Part shown: positions 7,544 through 61,329 of the stretch, piece by piece
Numbering within the stretch: position 1 is the stretch's first letter
Layout: the number at the start of each line of letters is the position of its first letter
Origin: Bacillota bacterium
GTDB taxonomy: Bacteria > Bacillota > Clostridia > Peptostreptococcales > Anaerovoracaceae
Reading direction: 5' to 3'
Length of the DNA: 64,000 bases
NCBI GenBank assembly: GCA_017443515.1
Contig: JAFRXM010000024.1
Location: forward strand, 12,031 to 76,030
Position numbers and translations under genes: made by a program
The notes under the pieces: model-generated
Told to the model about the DNA's origin: nothing
Seen by the model: the letters and a program-made list of their open reading frames with translations, nothing else
The model's database searches: none

Positions 7544-7568
7544 GTGGAGAAGAACCGTCCCTCTCCAC
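7544..7568 (-). repeat. loop-conserved hairpin repeat, GTGGAGA-stem class (copy A)
   Basis: GTGGAGA-AGAACCGTCCC-TCTCCAC. It lies 9 nt downstream of the purO stop. It is the exact reverse complement of copy F (45694-45718). Confidence 0.9.
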
Positions 7569-7577
7569 TAATCTCCA

Positions 7578-8207
7578 CTAATCTCCGAGGTGTTTGTTGT
7601 AGAGGGTCACTTCGCCGGCCACGTAGGCGTAGAAGGACACTTTGTTGTCGGCGTTGAGAGCCTCCCAGACCTCGTCCGGGGTGGGAAGGTCGACTTCTAT
7701 AGGCTCGCCCGCGAAGCTTGGCAGCGGGCTGCCGTCGCCCTGGTAGGTGCTGATGAAGTAGCCCTTGCCTTTTTCCGCGCCTTCGTAGCAGAAGAACTCG
7801 CGCAGGCAGGTGCCGTTTAAGTGCTTGAGTATGGAAATGTCGAAGCTTCCGTCGTTGTAGATCATGGCGGAGATGCGCGGGGTGAAGTTCGGTTCGTCCG
7901 GCTCGTACTCGCGGGTCATGAGCGCCTTCTTGAAGCATCCCATCTCAGCTATGGTATCTGTCTGGTTGCCGTTTGTTACGATGAGGCCTTTGTCGGTCTT
8001 TCTTACCGGATGGTAGATGATGAGGCTGGGGTCAGCGACCTTGCTCTCGTCGAACGCGCGGGTCTCAATGCCGTCTTCGGTGAGCGCGAAGATGCGGTTG
8101 CGGCTGTTCTCGGAGCGGCCCATTATCCAGTAATAGGCGACATTCTTTCCGATGACTATGCCCCTGCCGGGGTAGCTTGTCTTTTTAAGGAATTTGATCA
8201 GATCCAT
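7578..8207 (-). CDS. purO: IMP cyclohydrolase, PurO-like
   Basis: MDLIKFLKKTSYPGRGIVIGK...YWIMGRSENSRNR resembles archaeal-type IMP cyclohydrolase. An AAGGAG RBS lies 7 nt before this ATG. Confidence 0.7.
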   Translation of the reverse strand: MDLIKFLKKTSYPGRGIVIGKNVAYYWIMGRSENSRNRIFALTEDGIETRAFDESKVADPSLIIYHPVRKTDKGLIVTNGNQTDTIAEMGCFKKALMTREYEPDEPNFTPRISAMIYNDGSFDISILKHLNGTCLREFFCYEGAEKGKGYFISTYQGDGSPLPSFAGEPIEVDLPTPDEVWEALNADNKVSFYAYVAGEVTLYNKHLGD

Positions 8208-8240
8208 GTTACTCTCCTTTAACACTGTATATCATTGGTT

Positions 8241-8852
8241 TTAAGACTTTATTATGCTGCTGCTGACGAGCTCTGCGGCCTGCGGAAGTATTATCCACTC
8301 GGCCTGCTCCATGACGCGCCTCTGCAGCACTTCGGGGGTGTCCCCGTCTTCTATATTGACCGCCTTTTGAAGTATTATGCGTCCGCCGTCGGGGATCTCG
8401 TTTACGAAATGCACCGTAGCGCCGGTGACCTTTACGCCGTACTCAAGCGCTCTTTCGTGCACTGTAAGGCCGTAGAAGCCCTCGCCGCAAAAGCTCGGGA
8501 TCAGCGACGGATGCACGTTTATGATGCGCTCCGGCCACTTCGATGTGAAGTCACCGCTGAGTATCGCAAGGAATCCGGCCAGGACTATAAGGTCTATCTT
8601 TTCAGCCGTAAGCAGCTCTTCTAAGGCCTTTTCGAAGCCCTCTTTCCCGCCGCATTCTCTGCGTGTGAGCGTTACAGCTTTGATGCCGGCCTTAGCCGCC
8701 CTTTCAAGAGCGTAGGCTCCGGCCTTGTTCGAGACCACAAGCACTATCTCGCCGCTATGGATGATGCCCGAATCCTGCGCGTCTATCAGCGCCTGGAGGT
8801 TGGTGCCGCCACCCGATACGAGCACCGCTATGCGGGCTTTTTTTTCATTCAT
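8241..8852 (-). CDS. purN: phosphoribosylglycinamide formyltransferase
   Basis: MNEKKARIAVLVSGGGTNLQALID...NVHPSLIPSFCG...TVHFV. The upstream 16 codons of the ORF-track call run through repeat copy B. Confidence 0.85.
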   Translation of the reverse strand: MNEKKARIAVLVSGGGTNLQALIDAQDSGIIHSGEIVLVVSNKAGAYALERAAKAGIKAVTLTRRECGGKEGFEKALEELLTAEKIDLIVLAGFLAILSGDFTSKWPERIINVHPSLIPSFCGEGFYGLTVHERALEYGVKVTGATVHFVNEIPDGGRIILQKAVNIEDGDTPEVLQRRVMEQAEWIILPQAAELVSSSIIKS

Positions 8853-8874
8853 GATCACACCGTCCTGTCTTATG

Positions 8875-8900
8875 GTGACAGAGAACCGTCCCCATGTCAC
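8875..8900 (-). repeat. loop-conserved hairpin repeat, GTGACA-stem class (copy B)
   Basis: GTGACA-GAGAACCGTCCCCA-TGTCAC. The purM stop codon (TGA, 8897-8899) is the TGA inside the RNA-sense stem GUGACA. Confidence 0.9.
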
Positions 8901-9937
8901 TCTATTACGATCTTGTCTTCGCCGTTGATTATGCTGCCGATGATGTAGGCGTCTTCGCCGTTTTTATGGAGCACTTCGAGGGCTTTCTCAGCATCAGCTT
9001 TTGCCACGACAACGCTCATGCCAACGCCCATGTTGTAGGTGTTGAACATGTCGCGCTCGGGGATGCTGCCACGCTCCTGCAGCAGGCTGAAGATGGCCGG
9101 GATCTTTACGGAAGCCCTGTCCACTTTTGCGCACAGGCCATCGGGGATAGCCCTTGGGATGTTCTCGTAGAATCCGCCGCCCGTGATATGGCTGATGCCT
9201 TTTACGTCCGCGGCTTCAAGAAGAGCCAGGACCGGTTTTACATATATTCTGGTGGGAGTGAGAAGCGCTTCTCCTATGGTCTTTCCGCCGAGCTCTTCGG
9301 GCTTTGCGTCAAGATCTGCGGTCTCGATGTCGAACACCTTGCGGACCAGCGAATAACCGTTGGAGTGTATGCCGCTGGAAGGAAGCGCTATGATAACGTC
9401 GCCCTCCTCCATGCGGGTGTTGTCCACCAGCTTTTTCTTATCGACTATGCCCACGGAAAAGCCCGCCAGGTCGTAATCGTCGGGACGCATGACGCCCGGG
9501 TGCTCTGCGGTCTCGCCGCCTATAAGAGCGCAGCCCGCCTGAACGCAGCCCTCGGCCACGCCTTTTACAAGTTCCGCTACCTTTTCAGGCTCGTTCTTTC
9601 CTATGGCTATGTAGTCCAGGAAGAATATGGGCTTTGCGCCGCAGCAGATGATATCGTTCACGCACATCGCTACGCAGTCTATGCCCACAGTATCGTGTTT
9701 ATCCAGGATCTGCGCTATGCGCTGCTTGGTGCCAACGCCGTCGGTGCCGGACACCAGTATGGGCTCTTCCATGCCCTTGATATCGGGGGCGAACAGGCCG
9801 CCGAAGCCTCCTATGCCGGAGACCACGCCGGGGATATTGGTGCGCTCCACGTAGGGCTTCATGAGTTTTACGCCCTTGTAGCCGGCTTCGATATCAACGC
9901 CGGCAGCCGCGTAAGATCCGGAATGTGATTTTTGCAT
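8897..9937 (-). CDS. purM: phosphoribosylformylglycinamidine cyclo-ligase
   Basis: 346 aa: [13 protein letters not shown]...GIGGFGGLF...[10 protein letters not shown]...[10 protein letters not shown]. Confidence 0.9.
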
Positions 9938-9939
9938 CT

Positions 9940-11367
9940 CTACTCCTTTCCCGTCCAGCAGTAAGTGCAGACTTTTTCACGGTCCAGTCCTATGGCTTCC
10001 AGCAGCCCGTCGAGGCTCTGGTAGCCGAGAGAATCGAACCCCATCTTCTTGCATATCGCGGACAGCAGGCACTTGCCGCGCTCTGTGTTCGCGTCCGCAT
10101 ACTCTTCTATGTGCTTCTGTCCTTCGTCGCCTTCTATCTCCTGTATCATGCGCCTTGCCAGAAGATCCATGTCGGAGTTGCCGCGGCTGAAATTCAGATA
10201 CTTGCAGGAATACATTATCGGCGGGCAGGCGGAGCGCATGTGCACTTCTTTTGCTCCGGACTCGTAGAGGAACTCTACAGTTTCCCTCAGCTGGGTGCCG
10301 CGCACTATGGAGTCGTCCACGAACAGCAGCTTCTTGCCGCGTATGAGCCTGTCGACCGGCAGCTGCTTCATCTTGGCGACCATGTTCCTTACGGACTGGT
10401 CGTTTGGCATGAAGGATCTCGGCCAGGTAGGCGTGTACTTAACGAAAGGCCTTGCAAAGGTCTTGTGGCTGCGCGTGGAATAGCCTATAGCGTGAGGAAC
10501 GCCGGAATCCGGAACGCCCGCCACATAGTCAACGTCGGGAAGCGTTCCGCGGTCCATCTCGGCCTGAGCCATGCTCTCACCGTTGTGGTAGCGCATCAGC
10601 TCCACGTTAACGCCCTCGTAGTCGGAGTTCGGGTAGCCGTAGTAGCTCCACAGGAAGGCGCAGATCTTCATGTCCTTGCCGGGTGCCGCCAGAACTTCCT
10701 GAGTATCCGCGGTGAGCTTTACTATCTCGCCGGGCCCCAGCTCGCGGCTCTCGTGGTAGCCGAGCTTTTCGTAGGCGAAGGACTCAAAAGATACGCACTG
10801 CGCGTCGTCGCTTCTTCCGATGTGCACCGGGGTGCGCCCCAGCGCGTCGCGGGCTGCTATCAGTTCGCCCTTATCCGTCATGATTATGATGCTCATGGAG
10901 CCTTCGATGCAGGCCTGGGCGTGCTTTATACCGGATGCGAAATCGGGCTCGCGGTTTATGAGCGAGGCAACAAGCTCCGTGACATTTACTCTGCCGGAGC
11001 TCATTATGGTGAACTGGTTGTGATCCTCGGTGAAGATCTCCTTTATCAGCTCTTCGGCGTTGTTGATAACGCCTATCGTCATGATGGCGTAGACGCCGAG
11101 CTGGGATCTTACCAGTATGGGCTGCGGGTCGGAATCGCTGATGCAGCCGATTCCGCAGGTCCCGTGGAATTTATACAGATCGTTTTCGAATTTGGTCCTG
11201 AACGGGGTGTTCGAGATGTTGTGCAGCTCTCTGGAAAAACCTTTTTCGCGGTCCCAGAAAGTAAGGCCCGCGCTGTTGGTGCCCAGATGGCTGTGGTAAT
11301 CGGTCCCGAAGAACACGTCGAGGATCACGCTGCGGTCTTTTGAGACCGCGCCGAAGAAGCCGCCCAT
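9940..11367 (-). CDS. purF: amidophosphoribosyltransferase homolog without the N-terminal Cys nucleophile
   Basis: 475 aa. The PRTase part ([13 protein letters not shown]) and its pur-operon position support PurF. The N-terminus is MGGFFGAV rather than (M)CG[IV]. The start is fixed by a TAATG overlap with the purC stop. Confidence 0.75.
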
Positions 11368-18883: not shown

Positions 18884-18908
18884 TTATGTTTTTCCTGATC
18901 GATAGATC

Positions 18909-18934
18909 GTGACAGAGAACCGTCCCCTTGTCAC
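18909..18934 (-). repeat. loop-conserved hairpin repeat, GTGACA-stem class (copy C)
   Basis: GTGACA-GAGAACCGTCCCCT-TGTCAC. The transketolase C-subunit stop (18931-18933) is the TGA of the stem. Confidence 0.9.
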
Positions 18935-19860
18935 AGTACGCTTTTTATTTTTGCGATTATGCTGTCCGTGTCCAGGCCGTAGGCTTTCATGAGGTCCGGA
19001 AGATCGCCGGACTGGCCGAACCGGTCCATGATGGCAGCGTGCGCAAACTTTATGTTCCGGCCCAGCAGAGTATAGGCGACAGCTTCGCCAAGACCGCCCA
19101 TAACGTTAGCATCCTCTACTACCACCACTCTGCCGCCGCACTTTTCAGCCGCGGCGATGATGCCTTCTGTATCAAGCGGCTTTATGGTGTGCACATTTAC
19201 GACTTCGGCTTCTATGCCTTCGGCCGCGAGCTTTTCCGCTGCCTCCATGACGTAGGAGTTCATGACGCCGGTAGCGATCACCGCTACATCTTTGCCCTTG
19301 CGCAGGGTCTGCACCTTATAGGGGACGAACGGCTCGTCCTCGGATGTGAGTATGGGCGTTGCTATCCTTGCCGTGCGCATGTATACGGGGCCGTTGATAT
19401 TGTACATGGCCTCCACCATCTTCTTTGCCTGGTTGTAGTCGCAGGGGCTGAAAATGGTCATGTTGGGAAGCACGCGCATGATGGCGATGTCTTCTATTGC
19501 CTGGTGCGAGCCGCCGTCCGCCGCCGATGTGAGGCCGCTGTGGCTTCCTACCAGCTTGACGTTTATATTCGAATAGCATATGCTGTTGCGCACTATCTCG
19601 AAGGCTCTGCCCGGGCAGAATACCGCGAACGACGCCGCAAAAGGCACCAGCCCCACGCGCGCCATACCGGCCGCCATGCCCAGCATGTTGGCCTCGGCTA
19701 TACCTGCGTTGGTATGCCTTTCGGGGAACTTCTTAGCGAATTCCTTGGTGCCTACGCTGCCGCAAAGATCTGCGTCCAGCGCCACCACGTTGCTGTATTT
19801 TCCGGCAAGCTCCGCAAGACCTGCTCCGTAACCCTGACGGGTAGCTTTCATATCTGCCAT
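18931..19860 (-). CDS. transketolase, C-terminal (pyrimidine-binding) subunit
   Basis: 309 aa: TRQGYGAGLAELAGKY...LDADLCGSVGT...NAGIAEANMLGMAAG. Confidence 0.85.
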   Translation of the reverse strand: MADMKATRQGYGAGLAELAGKYSNVVALDADLCGSVGTKEFAKKFPERHTNAGIAEANMLGMAAGMARVGLVPFAASFAVFCPGRAFEIVRNSICYSNINVKLVGSHSGLTSAADGGSHQAIEDIAIMRVLPNMTIFSPCDYNQAKKMVEAMYNINGPVYMRTARIATPILTSEDEPFVPYKVQTLRKGKDVAVIATGVMNSYVMEAAEKLAAEGIEAEVVNVHTIKPLDTEGIIAAAEKCGGRVVVVEDANVMGGLGEAVAYTLLGRNIKFAHAAIMDRFGQSGDLPDLMKAYGLDTDSIIAKIKSVL

Positions 19861-31198: not shown

Positions 31199-31216
31199 CT
31201 GAAAAAACGAAAAAAT

Positions 31217-31277
31217 GGGACGGTTCTGGATTTTCATTTTGGTAATAATTGTCAAAATGAAAATCCAGAACCGTCCC
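31217..31277. repeat. long-stem member of the hairpin repeat family (copy D, two cores), also a bidirectional terminator
   Basis: GGGACGGTTCTGGATTTTCATTTTG (31217-31241) pairs perfectly with CAAAATGAAAATCCAGAACCGTCCC (31253-31277). An A-tract lies upstream and a T-tract downstream. It sits between convergent genes. Confidence 0.85.
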
Positions 31278-31286
31278 CACTTTTCA

Positions 31287-32408
31287 TTATATTATGTCCT
31301 TGAAGGTCTCGATGGCTGTACGCACCTGCTCGTAGTTCACCATCTGCTGGTCGATCTCTACAAGAAGCAGTGGTATTCCGGCAGCGTCCAGAGCGGCCTT
31401 GCCGGGCACGTAGTCGAACTCTTCGGGGTCGCAGAACTTGGTCAGCACCCACAGAACGCCTTCAGCACCGCAGGCCTTAGCGATCTGAACGAGCTGCGCG
31501 TTGCGCTCCTTTTCGGGCTCGTACAGAACGGAAGTGCCTTCTATCTCCGCGAGGCGCTTTGCCATGGCCTTAACCGGGTCTATGGACTCGTCGGCAAGGC
31601 AGCGGAAATCCACAGATTCGTGGGTTATCTGGTCTGCCGCGATGGTAAAGCCGTTGTCCTGCAGTATCCCCAGAAGCTCAGGAGAATCCGCGATTATACC
31701 AGTCGTTACGATCTTCTTTTCGGCCGGCTCTTCGGGAAGCGCCGCAAGCAGCTTATTCAGCTCTGCCAGCATCACAGTGTGCCTGTCCCTTGCCATAAAG
31801 TACCTGGCCTTCAGCACCAGAGCCCTGTCGATTAGGCTTACTGTCTTTGAGTGCGAAGCCGCAAGCTTTGTAAATTCAAGGCATTCGACACGGTTCTCGT
31901 TGTACACCTTGTTGGCCTTTGCCAGCGCCCAGTCGCTTATCTTTACGCCTGCAAGCTCTTCCACCTGGCCGCGGATCTTCTTGATCTGGCTCTCGGTGAA
32001 TTCAACGCCTGCAGCCAGCTTTCTGTTCTGAGCGTAGGCCACGTCGATCACAGGAATGTCCTTTACGCCGTATCTCCAGTTGGCGCCCATGCCCTTAAGA
32101 GAGTCGCAGGTGAGAGGGATCATAACAGCAGACAGGCCCTTAAACTCGCCGCGTATTCCAAGGTCCAGTATGGTGTGGATTATGGAGCAGTAGAATGCCG
32201 GGAAGTACCTTTTGGATTCGGACACCTGGATCTCGGCGCCCCACATTCCGAACGGCACCATGCCTGCCGCATACACCAGCTCTTCCGGCGCGTAGTAAGG
32301 CATAACGCCGACGGCCTTTTTTCCCTCAGCAAGCACAGCATCCAGCTGCGCTCTGGGGTCATTTGCTATTTCAATAAACGCATCCAGCGCTTTTCTTACT
32401 TCACTCAT
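31287..32408 (-). CDS. 2-hydroxyacyl-CoA dehydratase, beta-type subunit (HadC/FldC/HgdB-like)
   Basis: 373 aa: GVMPYYAPEELVYAAGMVPFGMWG...FPAFYCSIIHT...TCDSLKG. Confidence 0.75.
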   Translation of the reverse strand: MSEVRKALDAFIEIANDPRAQLDAVLAEGKKAVGVMPYYAPEELVYAAGMVPFGMWGAEIQVSESKRYFPAFYCSIIHTILDLGIRGEFKGLSAVMIPLTCDSLKGMGANWRYGVKDIPVIDVAYAQNRKLAAGVEFTESQIKKIRGQVEELAGVKISDWALAKANKVYNENRVECLEFTKLAASHSKTVSLIDRALVLKARYFMARDRHTVMLAELNKLLAALPEEPAEKKIVTTGIIADSPELLGILQDNGFTIAADQITHESVDFRCLADESIDPVKAMAKRLAEIEGTSVLYEPEKERNAQLVQIAKACGAEGVLWVLTKFCDPEEFDYVPGKAALDAAGIPLLLVEIDQQMVNYEQVRTAIETFKDII

Positions 32409-35813: not shown

Positions 35814-35832
35814 GAAAGTTGGTGGAGAGAAG

Positions 35833-35887
35833 GATGACAGGGGGACGGTTCTCTGTCACCGTGACAGAGAACCGTCCCCCTGTCATC
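35833..35887. repeat. head-to-head pair of GTGACAG-class hairpin repeats (copy E, two cores)
   Basis: GATGACAGGGGGACGGTTCTCTGTCAC-C-GTGACAGAGAACCGTCCCCCTGTCATC has perfect 27-nt arms. It lies in the predicted 5' leader of the TetR gene, ending 3 nt before its GGAGG RBS. Confidence 0.9.
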
Positions 35888-35900
35888 CCGGGAGGGTTTT

Positions 35901-45527: not shown

Positions 45528-45693
45528 GTTTTCCTCTGCCTTTTGACACTAAAAGTATAACATGTTCAGTTTTTAAAGAAAAGGACTTTTTTTAAGTTTT
45601 TGCACAAAAATCACAATAAATACACCCGATTTTTTGGCAAAAAAATAACGTGGTATTTCACCGCGCTAAACGCCCCCACATCTAGTGTGAACA

Positions 45694-45718
45694 GTGGAGA
45701 GGGACGGTTCTTCTCCAC
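45694..45718 (+). repeat. loop-conserved hairpin repeat, GTGGAGA-stem class (copy F)
   Basis: GTGGAGA-GGGACGGTTCT-TCTCCAC. Confidence 0.9.
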
Positions 45719-45732
45719 CGTTCTGTCAACGA

Positions 45733-46286: not shown

Positions 46287-46317
46287 GAGATATAGTCTCC
46301 GACCGCATTTTTATTAC

Positions 46318-46343
46318 ATGACAGAGAACCGTCCCCTTGTCAC
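46318..46343 (-). repeat. loop-conserved hairpin repeat, GTGACA-stem class (copy G)
   Basis: ATGACA-GAGAACCGTCCCCT-TGTCAC. It lies 1 nt from the aminopeptidase stop codon. Confidence 0.85.
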
Positions 46344-46344
46344 A

Positions 46345-47568
46345 TCAGAATGCCCAGTTGCCGTTCTTAAAGATCTGGATTTTTTTGCCGTCGCGGGTGT
46401 TTGCGACTATGTCGAGGTCTTCTGAACCGATCATGAAGTCCACATGCATGAAGGACTTGTTGACGCCCTTGTCATAGGCTTCCTGAAGGGTCATGTTTTC
46501 GAAACCGTCCAGGGTGTCCGCGAAGCCGAAGCCCAGCGCCAGGTGGCAGGCTGCGTTCTCGTCGAACAGGGTGTTGTAGAACAGGAGGCCGCTGTTCTGG
46601 ATCGGAGAATCGTAAGGCACCAGAGCGACTTCGCCCAGCATGCAGGAACCTTCGTCCATGTTGATGATCTCGGTAAGAACGTCCTTGCCCTTTTCAGCGT
46701 CCCATTCCACGGCCTTGCCGTCCCTGAAGCGGACCCAGAAGTTCTCGATAAGCTGGCCGTTGTTGGAGAGCGGCTTGGTGGCGTATACTATGCCTTCGGC
46801 CCTGCCCTTCATCGGGGAGATGAAGCACTCCTCGGAAGGCATGTTGGGGTTGAAAGTGTAGCCAAGAAGGCTGGTGTCGGCGCCGCCGTTGAAGTGCGCG
46901 CCGTCTATCATCCAGACCTTGAAATCTGTGCCGTTCTTGGACTTGTACTCAAGGCTGTCGATGCCAAGCGAGTTGAGATACTTGCAGCGAGCCTTGAGGT
47001 CCTTGTTGTGAGCGTCCCATGCCGCCAGCGGGTCTTCGGTGACGCGTGCGCAGGAGAGTATTGCCTCCCAGAGCTTTTCCACGGCCTGCTTTTTGGAAAG
47101 CTCGGGGAAGAGCTTCTTTGCCCACTTCTCGCCGGGAACAGCGGCTATGCACCACTGGTACTTGTTTTCTATCTGATCCCTGTACTTGCGGATCTCCGGC
47201 ATCTTCTTCTGCATGGCCTTGGCGAACTTTTTCTGATCGATGCCCTTAAGGCCGTCCGGATCTTCGGATTCCAGGTATATGCGGCAGGGAATTGTATTTA
47301 CGTAATGCTGCCATCTGGCGGCTTCGAAATCCTGCAGAGTGCCGAGGGTCTTGAGGCTCCTGTAGCGGGTGTGGATCTTTGCCAGAGGCTGGTAAGTGAA
47401 GTCTACGAATACGGATTTTGCTCCGAGCTTGTAGCACTCTTCTACGAGCATCTTTACGAATTCAGGCTGGTCGAGCTCCGCCTGGATGAATACTTCCTGG
47501 CCCTTCTGGACATTTACGCCCTTGGCTGCGATGAGGTTCGCGTACTTTCTTAATACTGTCTTTTTCAT
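46345..47568 (-). CDS. M29-family aminopeptidase (AmpS/PepS-like)
   Basis: 407 aa: LRKYANLIAAKGVNVQKGQEV...FYNTLFDENAACHLALG...HVDFMIG. Confidence 0.75.
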   Translation of the reverse strand: MKKTVLRKYANLIAAKGVNVQKGQEVFIQAELDQPEFVKMLVEECYKLGAKSVFVDFTYQPLAKIHTRYRSLKTLGTLQDFEAARWQHYVNTIPCRIYLESEDPDGLKGIDQKKFAKAMQKKMPEIRKYRDQIENKYQWCIAAVPGEKWAKKLFPELSKKQAVEKLWEAILSCARVTEDPLAAWDAHNKDLKARCKYLNSLGIDSLEYKSKNGTDFKVWMIDGAHFNGGADTSLLGYTFNPNMPSEECFISPMKGRAEGIVYATKPLSNNGQLIENFWVRFRDGKAVEWDAEKGKDVLTEIINMDEGSCMLGEVALVPYDSPIQNSGLLFYNTLFDENAACHLALGFGFADTLDGFENMTLQEAYDKGVNKSFMHVDFMIGSEDLDIVANTRDGKKIQIFKNGNWAF

Positions 47569-48456: not shown

Positions 48457-48974
48457 TTCAGTTTCCTCAGAACAAGAGTGCAGACTATCCCGTTGAATAT
48501 GCCTGTTGCTATGCCGGCGACAAAGAGCACCGGAAGGTACAGGAACACGTCCGATGTGGACGCGACGAGCGCCGCTACGATAAGCTGCGCAAGGTTGTGG
48601 AAAGCCCCGCCGGCCATAGAGACCGCGGTGAGGCTGAACAGCCCGGTCTTTTTCAGGAGAACCATTACGCCGAGGCTCACAAGGCCGCCGGCCAGTGCGT
48701 AAAGCCCGGAAAACAGACTTCCGAACAACAGCGCCGCAAGGGCTATCCTGATAAGGTTTATAAGCAGCGCGTACTGCGGGCCGAGGTAGTACAGAGCCAG
48801 CACCACGACTATGTTGGCAAGGCCAAGCTTGATGCCCGGAAGGCCAACGTTGAGCGGCAGCAGGAACTCTATGTACGACACTATCAGCGCCAGCGCCGCA
48901 AGAAGCGCGCAGGTGGTCGTGACAAGGGGACGGTTCTCTGTCACCCTTTTGCGGGCGGATCTTTCGCTTCCCAT
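48453..48974 (-). CDS. Gx transporter-family membrane protein
   Basis: LALIVSYIEFLLPLNVGLPGIKLGLANIVVVLALYY... The start is uncertain, because codons 10-18 are repeat copy H and an in-frame GTG lies at its 5' end. Confidence 0.55.
   Translation of the reverse strand: MGSERSARKRVTENRPLVTTTCALLAALALIVSYIEFLLPLNVGLPGIKLGLANIVVVLALYYLGPQYALLINLIRIALAALLFGSLFSGLYALAGGLVSLGVMVLLKKTGLFSLTAVSMAGGAFHNLAQLIVAALVASTSDVFLYLPVLFVAGIATGIFNGIVCTLVLRKLK
48920..48945 (+). repeat. loop-conserved hairpin repeat, GTGACA-stem class (copy H), inside an ORF
   Basis: GTGACA-AGGGGACGGTTCTC-TGTCAC. In the host frame it is translated as VTENRPLVT. Confidence 0.9.
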
Positions 48975-50765: not shown

Positions 50766-50792
50766 GGTGGAGAGGGACGGTTCTCCTCCACC
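50766..50792 (+). repeat. loop-conserved hairpin repeat, GGTGGAG-stem class (copy I)
   Basis: GGTGGAG-AGGGACGGTTCTC-CTCCACC. It is identical to copy M. Confidence 0.9.
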
Positions 50793-50906
50793 GTTATAGC
50801 TGCGGTTGACGCCAGGAGGGGCACCCGCGCCCTGAGCATTTTCCGCGAAGGGATGCGGGGAGATGTCCTGGAGGCAGGACCCGCTGCAATATCAATTCAT
50901 TGTTTT

Positions 50907-50933
50907 GGTGGAGGAGAACCGTCCCTCTCCACC
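50907..50933 (-). repeat. loop-conserved hairpin repeat, GGTGGAG-stem class (copy J)
   Basis: GGTGGAG-GAGAACCGTCCCT-CTCCACC. It is the exact reverse complement of copy I, 114 bp away, and identical to copy N. Confidence 0.9.
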
Positions 50934-50935
50934 AC

Positions 50936-50968
50936 CATGAAAAATGCCGCCCTGAAATAAGGCGGCAT
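50936..50968 (-). terminator. intrinsic terminator/attenuator after scfA
   Basis: On the minus strand, ATGCCGCC-TTATTTCAG-GGCGGCAT is followed by TTTTTC. Confidence 0.7.
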
Positions 50969-51320: not shown

Positions 51321-51360
51321 CTTTTACTCAAAATGTGGTATAAAGAAAGGAGGAAGTACG

Positions 51361-51788: not shown

Positions 51789-51850
51789 GAAACACGCCCT
51801 GAAGATTTATCATGAAATTAGTAATAGTATACAATCGTTATTGGGGGCAC

Positions 51851-52694: not shown

Positions 52695-52719
52695 AAAACC
52701 GGGGATAACCCCGGTTTCT
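52693..52719. terminator. bidirectional intrinsic terminator
   Basis: AAAAAACCGGGG-ATAA-CCCCGGTTTCT lies between convergent genes. Confidence 0.7.
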
Positions 52720-53455: not shown

Positions 53456-53473
53456 CCCCTTTTCTGAGGTGCG

Positions 53474-53947: not shown

Positions 53948-53968
53948 GGTCTTTCCTCCCCGCCCTTG

Positions 53969-54898: not shown

Positions 54899-55055
54899 AT
54901 GCGGCTCCTTTAAACTTATTTTTTATTATACTACCTGAAAGCCCCCTGTTCAAACAGTTATGCTCTGTATATCAACAAGTTGTTTCCGCGGCGGAAAAGA
55001 TGTATACTATACGCGACGGCATAAACTGTTCAATTAAGAAACGGAGATAATAGAA

Positions 55056-56168
55056 ATGGAAGAAACAAGACCCTTTTTAGACTGGAAACTGGCGCACGAT
55101 TTTATGGTCGATGTATTCGTAAAGTACGGCGTACCCAGAGAAGACGCGGAGATCTGCACGGACGTTCTTCTTGAGAGCGACCGCCGCGGCATCGAGAGCC
55201 ACGGATGCAACCGCTTCAAGCCGATCTACCTGGACCGCATAAAGAAAGGCACGCTGCTGCCTGTCACCAAGATCGACATCGTAAAGGAGACCCCGACGAC
55301 TGTCGTCATGGACGCCAACAACGGCATGGGCATGGTAGCAAGCTATAAGATGATGGAGATGCTGATCGAGAAGGCAAAGACCTACGGCATGGCCGGCGGC
55401 ACCATCATGAACTCCACCCACTACGGCATAGCCGGCTATTGGACCACGATGGCTGAAAAGGCCGGAATGATAGGCATCAGCGGCACCAACGCAAGGCCTT
55501 CTGTTGCGCCTACGTTCGGCGTAGAGCCCATGATGGGGACCAACCCGATGACGTTTACGATGCCCACCGACGAGCCTTTCCCGTTCAACCTGGACTGCGC
55601 GACCTGCATAGTGCAAAACGGCAAGATAGAATTCTACGCAAGGCAGGGAAAACCCACGCCCGAAGGCTGCGTAATAAGCGAGACCGGCGAGACCATGACC
55701 GAATCCGCCAAGATACTTAAGGATATGCGCGCAGGACACGCCGCGCTGCTGCCGCTTGGCGGCCCCGGCGAGGACACCGCAGGCTACAAGGGCTACGGAT
55801 ACACCACGGTAGTCGAGATCCTTTCCGCCGCTCTGGCAGGAGGCCCGTTCCTTAAGGCTCTGTCCGGCGTAGCCGAAGACGGAAGCCCGCAGATGTACAG
55901 GCTGGGACACTTCTTCTTCGTCATCAACCCCGAGTTCTTCATGGGGCTTGATACATTCAAAAAGACCGCCGGCGAGATCTGCCGCGGCCTTAGGAACTCG
56001 AAGAAGGCGCCGGGAGCCGAGCGCATCTACACCGCAGGCGAGAAGGCCTACGAGAACTGGCAGTTCCGCAAGGACAAGGGCGTGCCCGTCGGCGAAGCCA
56101 TCCAGAAGGAATTCATCCAGCTGCGCGACGAATGCGGCCTCACCCAGTATCACTTCCCGTTCGAATAA
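55056..56168 (+). CDS. Ldh2-family (malate/L-lactate/ureidoglycolate dehydrogenase-type) oxidoreductase
   Basis: 370 aa: ESDRRGIESHGCNRF...GTNPMTF..P...ALLPLGG...GYKGYG. Confidence 0.7.
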   Translation: MEETRPFLDWKLAHDFMVDVFVKYGVPREDAEICTDVLLESDRRGIESHGCNRFKPIYLDRIKKGTLLPVTKIDIVKETPTTVVMDANNGMGMVASYKMMEMLIEKAKTYGMAGGTIMNSTHYGIAGYWTTMAEKAGMIGISGTNARPSVAPTFGVEPMMGTNPMTFTMPTDEPFPFNLDCATCIVQNGKIEFYARQGKPTPEGCVISETGETMTESAKILKDMRAGHAALLPLGGPGEDTAGYKGYGYTTVVEILSAALAGGPFLKALSGVAEDGSPQMYRLGHFFFVINPEFFMGLDTFKKTAGEICRGLRNSKKAPGAERIYTAGEKAYENWQFRKDKGVPVGEAIQKEFIQLRDECGLTQYHFPFE

Positions 56169-56177
56169 AAAAAATAT

Positions 56178-56204
56178 GGTGGAGAGGGACGGTTCCTCTC
56201 CACC
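56178..56204 (+). repeat. loop-conserved hairpin repeat, GGTGGAG-stem class (copy K), terminator-like
   Basis: GGTGGAGAG-GGACGGTTC-CTCTCCACC has a 9-bp stem flanked by an A-tract and TTTTTTATT. It lies 9 nt after the plus-strand gene's stop and 4 nt after the minus-strand gene's stop. Confidence 0.9.
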
Positions 56205-56208
56205 TTTT

Positions 56209-57150
56209 TTATTCTGCCATCAAGTGCATGGCGCGAAGCTGCGGGTCGGCGATGCGGCTCTGCACTTCCTCCGCGTGCTGCAAAAGAAAATCTGAAGGGG
56301 AGGCCGAAAGGCCTTCCTTTTTCAGTTCGGCTATCACATCGGCGCTGATGGATTCGATGATGTCCACCTTCTCGTGGAAGGACGCCGGCGCGCAATCTTT
56401 AGCGTCCGAAAGAAGCTCTATCTGCGGAGCGATCTTTCCGCCAAGGACCGGCAGCTGCTTCATGGCCCTGTGAGCCCACTTGTAGTACGGACGGTAGCGC
56501 TTGTTCAGCAGGAACACTATAGCCTGCACGTGGTCCACGAACTCGGCGCAGGCAAGGAACGCCGCCACGAACTCGCCGCGGTGCGCGCACCTTGCGTAGT
56601 TGTACTGCCCGGACTGAGCCGCCATAGCGCAGCGCATCGCAAGCTTTTTGAGGCGCAGGTCCTCGGGATAAAATGCCAGAAGCCCCTCGCGGATGTCCGA
56701 GAACTCCTTGTTGTTGTTGAGGAACAGCTCGCCGTTGGTGGCCACGGCAAAGCCCTTTTCCGCCGCGCAGCGCCATTCGAAAATGCTCTGTGGAACCCGG
56801 TCGAAGCCGGTGTACCTGGCGTAGAAACTGCCGCTGCTCATGACGCCTACGCGCCCGCCGGTCTGGGCCGACACGTTGAGCCTGCGAAAGCCCATGTAGC
56901 TTTCCGGAAGCACGTTGTATATGCCAGAAGCCAGCCCGCCGAACTCCTGCATGTCGGCGTCGGTGAGCCACACGCAAAAGCCCGGGCCCCAGTCGTGGTC
57001 GCGGGATATCTCGTCGTCAAAGCCGTAGCACTCCGAGCCTTCGCCGACAAGGCCAACCGTGGCCTTTTCAAGCACCTGCGGGCAGCTCTTCTCGAAGGCC
57101 GGGCGGCCCACTTCTTCCCAGTATTTCCTTGAAAGTTCAAGTCCCTTCAT
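56209..57150 (-). CDS. nucleotidyltransferase-fold protein (DUF4037-like)
   Basis: Pol-beta-type motif: GLVGEGSECYGFDDEISRDHDWG. The C-terminal half is helical. The DUF assignment is from memory. Confidence 0.45.
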   Translation of the reverse strand: MKGLELSRKYWEEVGRPAFEKSCPQVLEKATVGLVGEGSECYGFDDEISRDHDWGPGFCVWLTDADMQEFGGLASGIYNVLPESYMGFRRLNVSAQTGGRVGVMSSGSFYARYTGFDRVPQSIFEWRCAAEKGFAVATNGELFLNNNKEFSDIREGLLAFYPEDLRLKKLAMRCAMAAQSGQYNYARCAHRGEFVAAFLACAEFVDHVQAIVFLLNKRYRPYYKWAHRAMKQLPVLGGKIAPQIELLSDAKDCAPASFHEKVDIIESISADVIAELKKEGLSASPSDFLLQHAEEVQSRIADPQLRAMHLMAE

Positions 57151-57164
57151 TTCAGTTCCTTTCT

Positions 57165-57190
57165 GTGACAGAGAACCGTCCCCCTGTCAT
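57165..57190 (-). repeat. loop-conserved hairpin repeat, GTGACAG-stem class (copy L)
   Basis: GTGACAG-AGAACCGTCCCC-CTGTCAT. The TPR gene's stop (57187-57189) is the TGA of the stem. Confidence 0.9.
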
Positions 57191-57993
57191 ATCTTTGATT
57201 CTGCTTCTTTGAGGTTGCGGGCTGTGGCGACGTACTCGCGGTGCTCTTTGTTGTAGTAGCGCTCGCAGTATACCAGAGCCGAGCGGAACCAGTCCGCGGC
57301 TTCTTTAAACCTTCCGGTAGCCATGCAAACAAGCCCCAGGCTGTTCAGGATCGCGTGGTAGTGCGGCGTGAACGTGTCGCAGAGCCTGTTCTCGTAGACG
57401 TCCTTTGCCTCAAGCAGGTTCTTCTCGGCGTCTTCGTAGCGCTCAAGCTGCCTGTAGAGCTCTGCGGTATTCGTAAGCGAAGTAGCGTACTCGTCAAGGT
57501 GCTCCGGAAGCTCCGCCAAAATGTCCGAAGCCTCTTTAAGGTACGCCGCTGCTCTGTCTGTCTGACCCTTATCCAGCGCCACGAGCGCCACGTTGTTGAG
57601 CCCCGCCGAATACAGTATGTGATGCCGTCCCACGGTGTTCTCGTAGATCCTGAGGCACTCCGCGAAGCCCTCCTCAGCCTTGTCGAACTCGCGCATCTGG
57701 CGGTAAGACCCGGCGCGGTTGTTCACGCAGGTAGCGTAGTCCGGAGACATCGGCCCGTTCAGAGCCTTAAGGATCTCCGCCGCCTTAGTAAAACACGCCA
57801 CGGACTCGTCGTACCTTGTAAGCCCGCGGTAAAACCCGCCCAGCTCCGAAAGCATCGAAGCGTAGATGGCACTGCCCTCCCCTTCGTTTTCCTTCGCAAG
57901 CTCGCAGGCACGCTTTATCTCGGACTCTATGATCTGGTTGTCCTCCGTCCCGTAGGACTTATCCACTATGCTGAAATAATCCCTGATATCCAT
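57187..57993 (-). CDS. tetratricopeptide-repeat protein
   Basis: 268 aa. It has repeated about 40-aa A/Y/L-rich helical pairs (e.g. ATCVNNRAGSYRQMREFDKAEEGFAECLRIYE). Confidence 0.6.
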   Translation of the reverse strand: MDIRDYFSIVDKSYGTEDNQIIESEIKRACELAKENEGEGSAIYASMLSELGGFYRGLTRYDESVACFTKAAEILKALNGPMSPDYATCVNNRAGSYRQMREFDKAEEGFAECLRIYENTVGRHHILYSAGLNNVALVALDKGQTDRAAAYLKEASDILAELPEHLDEYATSLTNTAELYRQLERYEDAEKNLLEAKDVYENRLCDTFTPHYHAILNSLGLVCMATGRFKEAADWFRSALVYCERYYNKEHREYVATARNLKEAESKI

Positions 57994-58061
57994 AGCTGAC
58001 CTCGTATATATTGTCCAAAAAAATCAATCGGTATCATCCTCTTTTTGTACATTCTATCATT

Positions 58062-58089
58062 TTACAATTCGCTCCTCAACTGATATAAT
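58062..58089 (+). promoter_or_regulatory. candidate promoter of the activase gene
   Basis: TTACAA (58062-58067), a 16-nt spacer, then TATAAT (58084-58089). Confidence 0.4.
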
Positions 58090-58129
58090 CATAATGCAAA
58101 GTGGTTTTTTAAGTGACTAAGGAGAGAAT

Positions 58130-59080
58130 ATGAGTTTCGAAGTAAATTACGATGTTACCTGTCCGGTATTCAACATCCAGACCTACAGCATTCACGACGG
58201 CCCCGGCATCCGCACAACAGTCTTCGTAAAAGGCTGCCCGCTGCGCTGCCTGTGGTGCGCAAACCCCGAATCCAACCTGGCAAAGCCTCAGCTTATGACT
58301 TACTCCAGCAAGTGCACAGGCTGCGGACAGTGCCTGCCCAAGTGCCCCAAGGGCGCCATCTCCATAGGCCCCTACGGCGAAGGCGAGAGCCTCAAATATA
58401 TCGCTATCACAGACCGCACCAAGTGCGTGGACTGCGGCGCCTGCGTAAAGGTCTGCCCGGCTGAAGCCCGCGAGATCGCAGGAAAGACCATGACAGTCCG
58501 CGAAGTCATCGATAAAGTCAAGAAGGACAAGCTCTTCTACGACGGTTCCGGCGGCGGCATGACGGTCTCCGGCGGCGAGCCTCTTGCTCACCCGGATTTC
58601 GTGGCCAACCTCATGGCAGCGGCTCACGCAGAAGGCATCACCACCTGCATCGAGACCAGTTCGTTCGGATCCCGCGAGGCAGTCGACAAGATCTACCCGC
58701 ACGTAGACCTGGCCCTTCTGGACGTAAAGCACATGGACAACACCACCCACGAAAAGCTCACCGGCGTGCCCAACACCTACATCCTTGAGAACATCAGGCA
58801 CATCGCGCTGGATCTTAAGGTGCCCGTCATCATCCGCGTCCCGACCATGCCCGGCTATAACGACAGCCCGGAGAACATAATCGCGACAGCCAAGTTTGCC
58901 CAGACCCTGGGCGATAACGTCCTGGTGAACCTGCTGCCCGCCCACAAGCTCGGCGAAAGCAAGAACGAGAGCCTCGGCATCGCAAACAGGTGCACCATCA
59001 CAGTGCCAACCGACGAATACATGCAGAGCCTCAAGAAGCTGGTGGAAGAAGCCGGCTCCCCCTGCAAGATCGGCGGCTAA
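58130..59080 (+). CDS. glycyl-radical enzyme activating protein (long, two-ferredoxin-motif type)
   Basis: IHDGPGIRTTVFVKGCPLRCLWCANPE, plus CTGCGQCLPKCP and CVDCGACVKVCP, plus VSGGEPL. Confidence 0.85.
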   Translation: MSFEVNYDVTCPVFNIQTYSIHDGPGIRTTVFVKGCPLRCLWCANPESNLAKPQLMTYSSKCTGCGQCLPKCPKGAISIGPYGEGESLKYIAITDRTKCVDCGACVKVCPAEAREIAGKTMTVREVIDKVKKDKLFYDGSGGGMTVSGGEPLAHPDFVANLMAAAHAEGITTCIETSSFGSREAVDKIYPHVDLALLDVKHMDNTTHEKLTGVPNTYILENIRHIALDLKVPVIIRVPTMPGYNDSPENIIATAKFAQTLGDNVLVNLLPAHKLGESKNESLGIANRCTITVPTDEYMQSLKKLVEEAGSPCKIGG

Positions 59081-59125
59081 GCCCGGACTAAAAAGCCTCC
59101 GGCTCAACTGAAAGGAGAACAGACA

Positions 59126-59809
59126 ATGGATAAGAAAGCTTTAATAGAAGAGATCGTAAAGAAAGAATGGCCGATGTTCCACAACGTCAACGGCGAAGAC
59201 CGCGTAGACTGCCAGGAAGACCCGACCACCTTCTACAACATGCGCACAGCCCAGTTCGATGTCTGGAACGAAGACGCGCTCGAAAGCTACAACAAGGATC
59301 TTGACGCCGCCATCGAGGCAGGCCGCAGCCTTGTAAAGGAAAAGTACATCTGGATGATGGAACACACCGATCCTAAGGGCTTTGAGGCATTCAAGGGCCT
59401 CCTGCCGGAAGTTTCCGAAAAGACGAACGCTCTCGTGGCCGACATCTGGAAGATCATGCTTGAGCAGACCGAAGAGCTCCGCAAGACCTACCCGCTTCTG
59501 GCTCTGGGCGGTCGCCCGCTGCACGCTTCCGAAGAGAAGGAATGGGCCTCCATCGAGACCTACCAGACCAGCGAGCTGCGCACCTTCTCCGAAGCCACAC
59601 TGGAAAAGCTCCTCGCCCACATCAAGGCCATGAAGGAAGCCGGAGAAGACTTCGTCTACAAGATCCAGGAAAACTCCGTCACCTGCCTTGGCTACAAGGA
59701 CATGAAGGAAGCTGAGATCGCCATGATGGGCCAGCTCATGAACGAGATGGGCATCACCGTCGAGGCCGACTGCCCCTCCTGCATGAAGGGATTCGACGAC
59801 GCAGAATAA
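59126..59809 (+). CDS. DUF4125-like protein, function unknown
   Basis: 227 aa, acidic and helical. MDKKALIEEIVKKEWPMFHNVNGEDRVDCQEDPTTF... The family is assigned from memory. Confidence 0.4.
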   Translation: MDKKALIEEIVKKEWPMFHNVNGEDRVDCQEDPTTFYNMRTAQFDVWNEDALESYNKDLDAAIEAGRSLVKEKYIWMMEHTDPKGFEAFKGLLPEVSEKTNALVADIWKIMLEQTEELRKTYPLLALGGRPLHASEEKEWASIETYQTSELRTFSEATLEKLLAHIKAMKEAGEDFVYKIQENSVTCLGYKDMKEAEIAMMGQLMNEMGITVEADCPSCMKGFDDAE

Positions 59810-59810
59810 C

Positions 59811-59837
59811 GGTGGAGAGGGACGGTTCTCCTCCACC
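59811..59837 (+). repeat. loop-conserved hairpin repeat, GGTGGAG-stem class (copy M)
   Basis: GGTGGAGAGGGACGGTTCTCCTCCACC. It starts 1 nt after the stop of the plus-strand gene. Confidence 0.9.
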
Positions 59838-59859
59838 AAACATCCAATCATACCAAATC

Positions 59860-59892
59860 AAAATGGCTCGGATCCTTGTCCGGGCCATTTTT
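59860..59892. terminator. bidirectional intrinsic terminator bracketed by repeats M and N
   Basis: AAAATGGCTCGGA-TCCTTG-TCCGGGCCATTTTT. Confidence 0.65.
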
Positions 59893-59919
59893 GGTGGAGG
59901 AGAACCGTCCCTCTCCACC
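59893..59919 (-). repeat. loop-conserved hairpin repeat, GGTGGAG-stem class (copy N)
   Basis: GGTGGAGGAGAACCGTCCCTCTCCACC. It is the exact reverse complement of M. It ends 3 nt before the stop of the minus-strand gene. Confidence 0.9.
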
Positions 59920-59922
59920 GCC

Positions 59923-61329
59923 CTACCAGGCGGCTTTTGTTATTTCTGCGTCCTGCCAGGTGCTTGTATAATCGTCTCCCAGCCAGTACATATCTGCCCC
60001 CATTATACTGCTTGAAAGCCTGGTATAATACTTCAGGCCATCCGCGGTAAACACCGCGAGACAAAAGCCGTCATTATACGCCATATGATTCACATCGTCC
60101 TTCCTTTCAGCAGGATACTCATAATTGCGGCTGATCACCGCAGCACGTCCTTTTTCGAAGGCAACATACTGGATCACACCCTCGATCCTCATTCTGATCT
60201 GCGGATCGATACTGTATGCAGGGAAGGTCTCCATCGCGTATCTTTCGCCTTCCTGGTAAATGCAGTACAGTGCTTTCGACGGGCTGTACACCGCCATACA
60301 GCTGTCAGACGGACGGAACTCAAGATGTCTGAGTTCGTTTTGCATATCCACGCTGAACCCCTGCGTATAACCGTCCGAGTACCTCAATACAGTCACGCGA
60401 CCGGTCGCGCTGTCGCCGTCCGAAGACCACACTGCCATGGCGCGGCCGCTGTCGAACTCGCCTGCGCTGTAGATCATTTCACCGTCTTTTGTTTCATACA
60501 CAAGCTCTGCCTTATCCACAAGCGGAGCATACTCTATGCGCTGTGAACTGATGAATTCCGGCTCATCCAGCTTTCCGAAAGGCACCCTCCAGATCCCGTT
60601 TTTCAGGGAGGTCCTGTAGTACGACGGAACATTGACCATCAGGTAGAAGTTTCCGTCTCGGTATATGCTTTTCATGCTGATATAGGGGTCATCGATCATG
60701 GTCTTGGGATCGCCGTTCAGATAAAAGCTTGTCTGGCCGGAACTGCTGCTTTCCGATATCTTCTCCACTTTAAGGCGTACCCACAGCTCGTCAGGCACTT
60801 CAAGTCTGAAAAGTTCCGAGAACTTCCCGTAAAGGCTGCTGTCATCGCCGCTCTCAAGATGTCCGTTGTAACCATTGACATGCCATTGGACACGCGGATA
60901 GATGACAGAAACGACATCCTTAAGGCGGAAGTCTCTGACGGCTGATTCTCCCGGTTGGAGACTTGCTACGACAGGTGACTCAAAATCGTAGAACTGCAGA
61001 GTCGACTCGGGATCCGCGTACACACTGAACTCACAGGCAGCCTCGTACTGCTGCTCTGTCTGGTTGAAATATTCGCTCTTCGCGCCGCAATCTGCTCCGT
61101 CGGCGCCGAAAACCACAGTTGCGTTCCACCCGAGCCTGTTGGCGGTCATCTTCGTGTATTCGACCTTCAGGCCTTCTGCGGCCGCAGGGTCGCCGAAGCT
61201 GTCGTAAAGGCTGAAACTGACATCATCAGCTGCCTTAAGAATGCTGCGCGAACCGGATACGACTCCGGCAATGGCTGCTGCCGCAAGCACTATGCTGAGT
61301 ATCAGCGCTATATGCTTCTTACCACTCAT
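59923..61329 (-). CDS. N-terminally anchored extracytoplasmic protein, unknown function (module copy 1)
   Basis: MSGKKHIALILSIVLAAAAIAGV... then about 440 aa with no recognised motif. It is a distant paralog of 62061-63569. I chose the start that gives the same 11-nt overlap with the upstream gene in both modules. Confidence 0.5.
   Translation of the reverse strand: MSGKKHIALILSIVLAAAAIAGVVSGSRSILKAADDVSFSLYDSFGDPAAAEGLKVEYTKMTANRLGWNATVVFGADGADCGAKSEYFNQTEQQYEAACEFSVYADPESTLQFYDFESPVVASLQPGESAVRDFRLKDVVSVIYPRVQWHVNGYNGHLESGDDSSLYGKFSELFRLEVPDELWVRLKVEKISESSSSGQTSFYLNGDPKTMIDDPYISMKSIYRDGNFYLMVNVPSYYRTSLKNGIWRVPFGKLDEPEFISSQRIEYAPLVDKAELVYETKDGEMIYSAGEFDSGRAMAVWSSDGDSATGRVTVLRYSDGYTQGFSVDMQNELRHLEFRPSDSCMAVYSPSKALYCIYQEGERYAMETFPAYSIDPQIRMRIEGVIQYVAFEKGRAAVISRNYEYPAERKDDVNHMAYNDGFCLAVFTADGLKYYTRLSSSIMGADMYWLGDDYTSTWQDAEITKAAW

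Follow-up and report, generated by a model that had tools for sequence, protein, structure and literature searches.

Repetitive hairpins with an invariant tip in a Bacillota genome: probable REP/REPIN-type mobile elements linked to a RayT-like transposase

The stretch of DNA analyzed here, 64 kb of contig JAFRXM010000024.1 from a Bacillota bacterium and in the following called the window, carries 16 copies of a short palindromic repeat, all of them non-coding hairpins of 24-37 nt. An earlier note on this DNA had pointed out that most copies lie at stop codons in one RNA orientation, and had proposed either a function at the RNA level or an insertion mechanism that targets gene ends. We argue below that the repeats are non-autonomous mobile DNA of the REP/REPIN type (repetitive extragenic palindromes, and REP doublets forming hairpins), in the form known as the TIRYT type (terminal inverted repeats associated with a tyrosine transposase), a reading to which we assign a probability of roughly 0.8.

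Results

Sixteen hairpins in the window

The window was searched for copies of the 11-mer GGGACGGTTCT with at most one mismatch, which gave 16 cores against a chance expectation of 0.9; none of 100 shuffles reached 16, and the density in the window is about one hairpin per 4 kb. Allowing up to three mismatches brought in no further copies beyond chance in the window, and it therefore holds no decayed copies. Flanking genes were assigned from the called genes of an overlapping public contig together with Pfam. Several open reading frames (ORFs) proposed by codon-usage and longest-ORF callers, such as 18928-20478 and 38918-42052, were rejected as antisense miscalls, and the Pfam-checked genes were used instead. 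The copies, named A to P, are as follows.

7544..7568, minus strand: copy A, single hairpin GTGGAGA-GGGACGGTTCT-TCTCCAC, with the purO stop 9 nt upstream and the purH start 17 nt downstream; sense.
8875..8900, minus strand: copy B, single hairpin GTGACATG-core-CTGTCAC, with the purM stop TGA (8897-8899) within the 5' arm; sense.
18908..18935, minus strand: copy C, single hairpin with the stop TGA of the transketolase C-subunit (18931-18933) within the 5' arm; sense.
31204..31288, doublet D (plus)/E (minus): cores at 31217 and 31267, stem type ATGAAAA/TTTTCAT, folding as one long hairpin (-46.6 kcal/mol) between the convergent genes Uma2 (plus, 18 nt to core) and HGD-D (minus, 9 nt to core).
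35832..35891, doublet F (plus)/G (minus): cores at 35842 and 35868 in a near-perfect 57-nt palindrome, not at a gene end, between the divergent genes CoA-transferase III (minus) and TetR (plus).
45689..45723, plus strand: copy H, single hairpin within 817 nt of degraded non-coding DNA and 161 nt upstream of a TetR gene (minus), with no adjacent gene end.
46316..46345, minus strand: copy I, single hairpin beginning 0-1 nt past the M29 aminopeptidase stop; sense.
48919..48944, plus strand: copy J, single hairpin within an operon of the minus strand, past the NusG_II stop (48987) and before the Hpre_diP_synt_I start, 38 nt from the stop; antisense.
50766..50937, doublet K (plus)/L (minus): cores at 50774 and 50915, separated by a structured spacer of 130 nt, between the divergent radical-SAM gene (minus) and DUF1902 ORF (plus).
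56178..56204, plus strand: copy M, single hairpin whose core is the variant GGGACGGTTCC, preceded by an A-run and followed by a T-run; it lies 9 nt past the stop of Ldh_2, to which it is sense, and 4 nt from that of the convergent DUF4037 gene, to which it is antisense; from its sequence it looks like a bidirectional terminator.
57166..57189, minus strand: copy N, single hairpin with the stop TGA of a TPR gene (57187-57189) within the 5' arm ATGACAGG; sense.
59811..59919, doublet O (plus)/P (minus): cores at 59819 and 59901 flanking a separate terminator-like hairpin and filling the entire spacer of the convergent genes DUF4125 (plus, 1 nt to stop) and 59923 (476 aa, minus, 3 nt).

An invariant tip on a covarying stem

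For copies outside the window we used 120 unrelated metagenome loci retrieved with CAGGGGACGGTTCTCTG and a scan of genome contigs with GGGACGGTTCTNNNNCAC, a low-specificity pattern that returned mostly chance matches and at least about a dozen true loci among the matches listed. Viral contigs were nearly devoid of the hairpin motif, with 6 matches. The consensus is N(4-8)ACAG-GGGACGGTTCT-CTGTN(4-8), and the tip GGGGACGGTTCT, which reads (ACAG)GGGA-CGG-TTCT(CTGT), is invariant. Across 123 distinct copies from many organisms the 11-mer does not change and the nine pairs that flank it covary: pairing is found in 84% of cells (68% in shuffles), two-sided changes number 291 (116 +/- 9 in shuffles), and the covariation score of 0.405 exceeds both the 0.142 of shuffles and the 0.10-0.17 of controls with a slid partner. 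The outer stem is variable, with three types in the source genome (in the window GTGGAGA/YCTCCAC in 7 copies, RTGACA(A/G/T)G/CTGTCAY in 7 and ATGAAAA/TTTTCAT in 2) and dozens elsewhere. The stems in the window start with GTGG, GTGA or ATGA; over the 123 copies the outer positions are unconserved and only ACAG-core-CTGT is kept, with no constant GTAG/GTGG (or CGTC) foot.

In the top strand the core can pair as G1.T11, G2-C10, G3.T9 and A4-T8 around a CGG triloop, and the rare core variants GAGACGGTTTT, GGGACGGTCCC and the one in copy M (where G1.T11 becomes G1-C11) are partly compensatory. The sense RNA folds at -13.6 kcal/mol and the antisense RNA at -8.6 kcal/mol, the gain in stability for the sense strand being 3-5 kcal/mol. 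Mismatches in the variable stem are about as often G.T (47) as A.C (59), which gives no sign that one strand of the stems was under selection. The folding energies of doublets range from -27 to -120 kcal/mol. Rfam at gathering thresholds gave no match over any copy in the whole window, and with E values up to 10 in the region 45000-60500 (copies H-P) nothing matched the copies except microRNA-like chance similarities to the O/P palindrome and a marginal match at copy M. As a separate observation, two doublets from different metagenomes (L214 and L241) have a common internal palindrome of about 60 nt (GTGTATACCCGGTCGGATAAC...) as cargo between their hairpins.

Position at stop codons and orientation

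The distances to the stops of purO, the M29 aminopeptidase, Ldh_2, DUF4125 and the 59923 gene given in the earlier note were accurate, as were those from the Uma2 and HGD-D stops to the core, and all ten copies it had called sense are sense, with the hairpin 0-9 nt from the stop. It is also clear that the purM, transketolase C-subunit and TPR genes stop at a TGA in the 5' arm, and that the copies are not simply terminators, as had been claimed, the operon copies (purO-purH, purM-purN, tktC-sufC and TPR-DUF4037) being without a U-tract.

The strength of the orientation bias is another matter. Eight of the 16 copies form the four inverted doublets D/E, F/G, K/L and O/P, all arranged 5'-GGGACGGTTCT...AGAACCGTCCC-3', and two of these (F/G and K/L) lie between divergent genes, where the idea of one sense copy per transcript is inapplicable. 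Neighbouring cores in the 120 metagenome loci were ordered plus then minus 45 times and minus then plus once, with 20 tandem pairs, and a further plus-then-minus doublet (L254), found past purL and slightly beyond the left edge of the window, has co-directional genes around it. The head-to-head layout thus totals 50:1 (45:1 in the metagenomes, all four in the window and L254), while independent copies at 65% sense would be expected to give plus then minus in only about 78% of inverted pairs at convergent genes. The layout is therefore intrinsic to the element, and the four "sense" copies D, E, O and P are uninformative on orientation. Opposed copies at convergent gene pairs do exist, as the earlier note described, but the same sense that they give to each transcript comes from the doublet itself, which also occurs between divergent genes.

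Copy M, sense to one gene and antisense to its convergent neighbour, and copy H, with no gene end beside it, do not count either, and the informative copies in the window are 5 sense to 1 antisense, the latter being J (p = 0.22). Single copies elsewhere were scored in a symmetric manner, by a long ORF ending at -20 to +60 nt on the same versus the opposite strand, and gave 33:21 in favour of sense for ORFs of at least 120 aa and 27:14 for at least 200 aa; loci with real gene calls add 4:1. Pooled, single copies are 42:23 sense (65%, p = 0.025), or 36:16 with the stricter ORF cut. Antisense copies have a median stop distance of about 13 nt and sense copies of about 15 nt, and the stop falls within an arm in about 30% of gene-end copies elsewhere in both orientations; palindromic arms present the same TGA or TAA either way round. 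In 271 copies elsewhere a T-run follows about 12% of the single ones, and 83% of the single ones have neither T-run nor A-run. The position effect at gene ends is real and the sense excess is modest, so that the near-absolute bias originally described (10 of 11 copies) shrinks to 5:1 among informative copies and to about 65% overall. With these ratios, equal stop distances and no strand preference in the stems, the strength of the bias does not support the RNA function that had been derived from it.

A RayT-like transposase gene bracketed by the hairpins

Blind all-against-all clustering of 535 long ORFs from the 120 hairpin-bearing metagenome loci brought out one family of 250-285 aa, 28-85% identical and present in at least 10 of the 120 loci, with extra fragments found by tblastn. 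A second ORF family in the same clustering was weakly similar (21-38% identity). Members of the first family match Pfam Y1_Tnp above cutoff (E 1e-14 to 5e-16) and contain an HUH motif (NHVHLL) as well as a tyrosine in RYIxxNPVKAGL, and their best NCBIfam model is NF047646, REP-associated tyrosine transposase, or RAYT (72-77 bits, cutoff 80). The C-terminal stretch has sub-threshold matches to the helix-turn-helix (HTH) families HTH_58, HTH_24 and HTH_23 (E 0.007 to 0.2), and the match to the TnpA-REP structure PDB 4ER8 is weak (E = 0.19). At E <= 1e-10 there are 7,789 homologous proteins, named "transposase" or "REP element-mobilizing transposase RayT" in their sources and mostly located on contigs of 1-4 kb, as expected of repeated DNA.

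The geometry around the gene is constant, with a plus hairpin 55-102 nt upstream of the start and a minus hairpin 6-24 nt past the stop, which is the same plus-then-minus layout as in the doublets. The upstream hairpin is followed by a T-run and a TTGACA...TATAAT-like promoter. At least 8 complete metagenome loci have a gene flanked in this way, as does the isolate Aristaeella lactis, in whose complete genome (CP069421.1) solo copies past nearby genes share the stem GGAGACAG with the hairpins that bracket the gene.

Empty sites in relatives

Relatives with PurM proteins 88-92% identical to that of the source organism (L244 and L246) have no core in 41 kb. Their purM-purN spacer is 12-15 nt, compared with 45 nt in the source, and the purO-purH spacer is 12 nt in L246 compared with 51 nt in the source, copy A being absent. 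In a further relative (L263), with an 84% identical transketolase C-subunit, copy C is absent and the gene ends at TAA. The earlier note had suggested an alignment with orthologues lacking the element to see if native C-termini had been replaced, and for both proteins the answer is no: PurM ends in KIVIE and the transketolase C-subunit in KIKSVL with or without the hairpin, and only the stop differs, from TAG or TAA in the relatives to the TGA of the stem in the source. These three empty sites, together with the hairpins flanking a Y1 transposase, support the insertion alternative insofar as it means a mobile element; active targeting of gene ends, its other half, is unlikely.

On reading the sequences, no target-site duplications were seen around the doublets, the only candidate being a 10-nt duplication at copy A. 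Here the 5' arm abuts a tandem duplication of GGAGATTAGT (two units, 7567-7586, minus strand) which contains the purO stop; it could be an insertion footprint or the result of slippage, and a relative has GGAGATTAAGGAGAAAACAATG in the corresponding position. Directly past copy B, ACAGGACGGTGTGATC (8853-8868, minus strand) resembles a degraded second core and now provides the ribosome-binding region of purN.

Two further observations concern pur genes elsewhere. Two near-identical PurM homologues, P0001 (491 aa) and P0014 (406 aa), are far longer than the 346 aa of PurM; a lost hairpin-borne stop, with translation running on towards purN, could account for this, as could misassembly at the hairpin. 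In the relative L260 a complete RayT element with two plus hairpins upstream and two minus hairpins downstream occupies 9893-10800, directly past FTHFS, the last gene of a purM-N-O-H-D-L cluster.

Discussion

Comparison with known systems

REPs mainly occupy the gaps of co-directional and convergent ORF pairs, where the 3' end of the upstream ORF is less than 20 bp away; head-to-head dimers are the prevailing form, and the stop codon is often supplied by GTAG ends (PMC3733652). As stop proximity, stop donation and head-to-head dimers are all published REP traits, the behaviour of the present hairpins is ordinary for REPs. They resemble the REP/REPIN-RAYT systems of E. coli, Pseudomonas and Stenotrophomonas in being short extragenic imperfect palindromes of high copy number, in forming head-to-head doublets that can fold as one long hairpin, in having no target duplications, in bracketing a Y1 HUH transposase gene with inverted copies (the REPtron layout), and in placing copies within 20 bp of upstream ORF 3' ends at co-directional or convergent genes, where element ends donate stops. 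They differ in that the conserved unpaired 5' GTAG/GTGG tag is missing and the apical 11-19 nt are invariant on a free basal stem. The same tip occurs, among the matches listed, in Bacilli (Litchfieldia, Salipaludibacillus), Clostridia and metagenome-assembled genomes assigned to other phyla; classical REPs, by contrast, are confined to single species. The transposase is also longer here, with a C-terminal extension, and often sits on very short contigs, hinting at several copies per genome.

The inverted repeats on either side of TIRYT genes contain the motif GGGGWSAS, and some of them are self-complementary and moderately repeated (PMC3733652, Di Nocera 2013). TIRYT genes make up TnpA-Y1 subclass 2.1, the second largest, with a C-terminal HTH or DnaA-like domain such as Bac_DnaA_C, HTH_23 or HTH_28, and no REP-like sequences were reported beside genes of this subclass (PMC6006769, Quentin 2018). 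The element described here shares with these "TIRtrons" a RAYT-like tyrosine transposase with a C-terminal extension (here with sub-threshold HTH matches), inverted repeats at fixed distances with a G-rich motif that resembles theirs, and repeats that appear as singles, dimers or clusters and in some families are self-complementary. Our GGGGACGG fits GGGGWSAS at 7/8 positions, position 7 being G and not A. The TIRtron cases described come mainly from Proteobacteria and Acidobacteria and have moderate copy numbers, in contrast to the compact REP-like hairpins at about one per 4 kb seen here. The transposase probably belongs to TnpA-Y1 subclass 2.1.

IS200/IS605 elements likewise have a Y1 HUH transposase, subterminal hairpins recognized as single-stranded DNA and no target duplication. 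Their end hairpins are on the same strand, whereas ours are inverted, no tnpB is found here, and the transposase reaches 17 bits with the NCBIfam IS200 model NF033573 against a cutoff of 55. The left-end hairpin of IS200 insulates the transposase gene from outside transcription, and the left-end hairpin with its T-run could act likewise in the present element.

A probable REP/REPIN-type mobile element

Collectively, the bracketed transposase gene, the empty sites and the intrinsic doublet layout point to mobile DNA as the best explanation for the repeats. The doublets would then be transposase elements that have suffered internal deletions, that is REPINs, and the single copies would be half-elements. 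The TnpA-REP protein processes folded single-stranded REP hairpins in vitro (PMC8266576, Corneloup 2021). From homology, and from the example of E. coli TnpA-REP and IS200/IS605, we would expect the transposase to recognize the folded single-stranded hairpin with its conserved mismatched tip, and to cut and join it without leaving a target duplication. Copies would persist only at harmless sites, which in densely packed operons would mean the bases at or just past a stop and upstream of the next ribosome-binding site. Since the palindromic arms often carry TGA or TAA, an insertion right at a stop codon could substitute for it and leave the protein unaltered. Since a spacer of 12-15 nt that also holds the next ribosome-binding site leaves almost nothing other than the stop codon, selection alone can produce the observed pattern.

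Several points weigh against this interpretation. The transposase scores just below the NCBIfam equivalog cutoff, and its C-terminal HTH is sub-threshold in Pfam. The 64-kb window contains no RayT homologue, and the existence of a cognate enzyme in the source organism is something we infer. There is no conserved 5' GTAG/GTGG tag, the conserved determinant being the tip, and this tip is invariant across very different bacteria, a stronger conservation than is usual for REPs. The sense excess of about 65% in single copies is left unexplained by a mobile element alone. To our knowledge, mobilization of REPs by RAYTs in vivo is undemonstrated even for the classical families.

The sense excess may have an origin in replication, a possible though rather unlikely addition to the picture: insertion into one strand at the replication fork, as for IS608 and ISDra2, combined with the co-orientation of genes and replication in Bacillota, would produce it as a by-product. 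The IS200/IS605 members of the Y1 HUH family, to which the enzyme also belongs, have the lagging-strand template as their target (PMC6006769). In the window the minus strand carries the majority of the genes and of the single copies, and a bias of about 65% is below the typical gene-strand bias. Copy M, however, follows its own plus-strand gene and not the local majority strand, and cases on the minority strand are too few to count for much (2 sense vs 3 antisense).

We consider it improbable that the hairpins are in the first place RNA elements acting in cis, kept by selection in sense orientation at the 3' ends of mRNAs for protection against exonucleases, processing or protein docking, with spread as a secondary matter. 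The sense RNA does extend its helix through G.U pairs and is the more stable by the 3-5 kcal/mol given above, the single copies are in sense excess (42:23, or 36:16), the invariant tip has two conserved G.U/G.T pairs, and most copies lack a U-tract and are thus not plain terminators. Against this, antisense copies are equally near to stops, stem mismatches show no strand preference, and the hairpin past the stop of the RayT gene itself is always antisense. A role at 3' ends does not agree with the doublets or with the copies in divergent promoter regions, the element is missing altogether from close relatives that have the same operons, and no Rfam family matches it. An RNA-level role is conceivable, but any effect as a stable 3' hairpin or occasional terminator would be secondary. 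Stop-proximal REPs of E. coli reportedly affect translation or mRNA decay (Liang, Rudd and Deutscher 2015; the malE-malF REP stabilizer), in work cited as references 27-30 of PMC6006769. A stable hairpin within about 15 nt of a stop in an operon is indeed the context of copies A, B, C, I and N, a likeness of sequence position only.

It is likewise unlikely that the insertion machinery actively targets stops or gene ends, for example through a short TRA target beside the left arm in the manner of the fixed tetranucleotide of IS200/IS605. Such targeting would agree with the exact replacement of the native stops of purM and the transketolase C-subunit by the TGA of the stem with no residue altered, with the stop in an arm in about 30% of gene-end copies elsewhere, and with the REP tags known to donate stops (PMC3733652). 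However, the doublets F/G and K/L occupy divergent promoter regions, H lies in a degraded region and J is 38 nt away from a stop; no conserved motif is visible outside the arms, and in operon spacers of 12-15 nt selection by itself would leave only the insertions at stop codons.

Ordinary intrinsic terminators, or recoding signals after UGA resembling a selenocysteine insertion sequence (SECIS), are highly improbable and were rejected: copy M has its A- and T-runs and about 12% of single copies elsewhere have a T-run, and a UGA before a hairpin superficially recalls a bacterial SECIS, but U-tracts are mostly absent (83% of single copies have neither run, and in the window only copy M qualifies), operon copies stand directly before the ribosome-binding site of the next gene, the proteins end at native C-termini shared with orthologues with the next ribosome-binding site and start within 15-24 nt, the tip follows the UGA at about 12 nt, closer than in the SECIS of E. 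coli fdhF, and Rfam has no match.

A family with the invariant GGGGACGGTTCT tip does not seem to have been described previously; the exact core sequence gave only unrelated primer matches in the literature, and no paper giving it was found. We raise tentatively, as a bolder version of the mobile-element interpretation that may well prove wrong, that the hairpin is the missing REP partner of a very large RayT/TIRYT clade (more than 7,000 homologues), recognized by its mismatched tip instead of a 5' tag, and possibly also co-opted in sense orientation as a stop-proximal mRNA hairpin. If so, recognition of the tip would let one pair of enzyme and site cross phyla while each genome evolves its own stem. 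A widespread and uncharacterized RayT-like clade in Bacillota is in any case linked here to a concrete and easily searched DNA substrate, whose unusual architecture (an invariant tip on a free stem) makes an in vitro cleavage assay and a test of spread across phyla feasible. The hairpins also explain oversized operon spacers and non-native stop codons in annotation. As it stands, the finding reveals no new RNA regulatory mechanism.

Other features of the window

In the pur operon (6351-8225, minus strand) the archaeal-type IMP cyclohydrolase PurO (PF07826) adjoins a PurH of 391 aa, for which AICARFT_IMPCHas is the sole Pfam family on record. A lysine riboswitch aptamer (Rfam RF00168, 75.6 bits) is located at 25108-25279 (minus strand), upstream of a minus-strand gene of 532 aa (23486-25084). 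Three consecutive ORFs of 476, 246 and 519 aa at 59923-63620 (minus strand) have no Pfam match and codon-usage scores of 0.05-0.11 per codon, compared with 0.2-0.3 for most genes, which suggests foreign or fast-evolving genes.

Copies H and I are 624 nt apart and ordered plus then minus, and were considered as the ends of a decayed RayT element; this was rejected, as the intervening DNA has no similarity to the transposase and holds what looks by eye like an IS3-type remnant instead. A short ORF in this degraded stretch (46066-46230, plus strand) ends in ...DKYIRYYNEKRGKASLGYMSPIEYRKKMLAA, which by eye resembles the C-terminal tail of an IS3-family transposase. Two ORFs run through the hairpins themselves, 46318-46425 (plus strand) and 45611-45718 (minus strand), with peptides such as MTENRPLVT and MEKNRPSPLFT, and such hairpin-derived strings probably give rise to spurious small "hypothetical proteins" when genomes are annotated.

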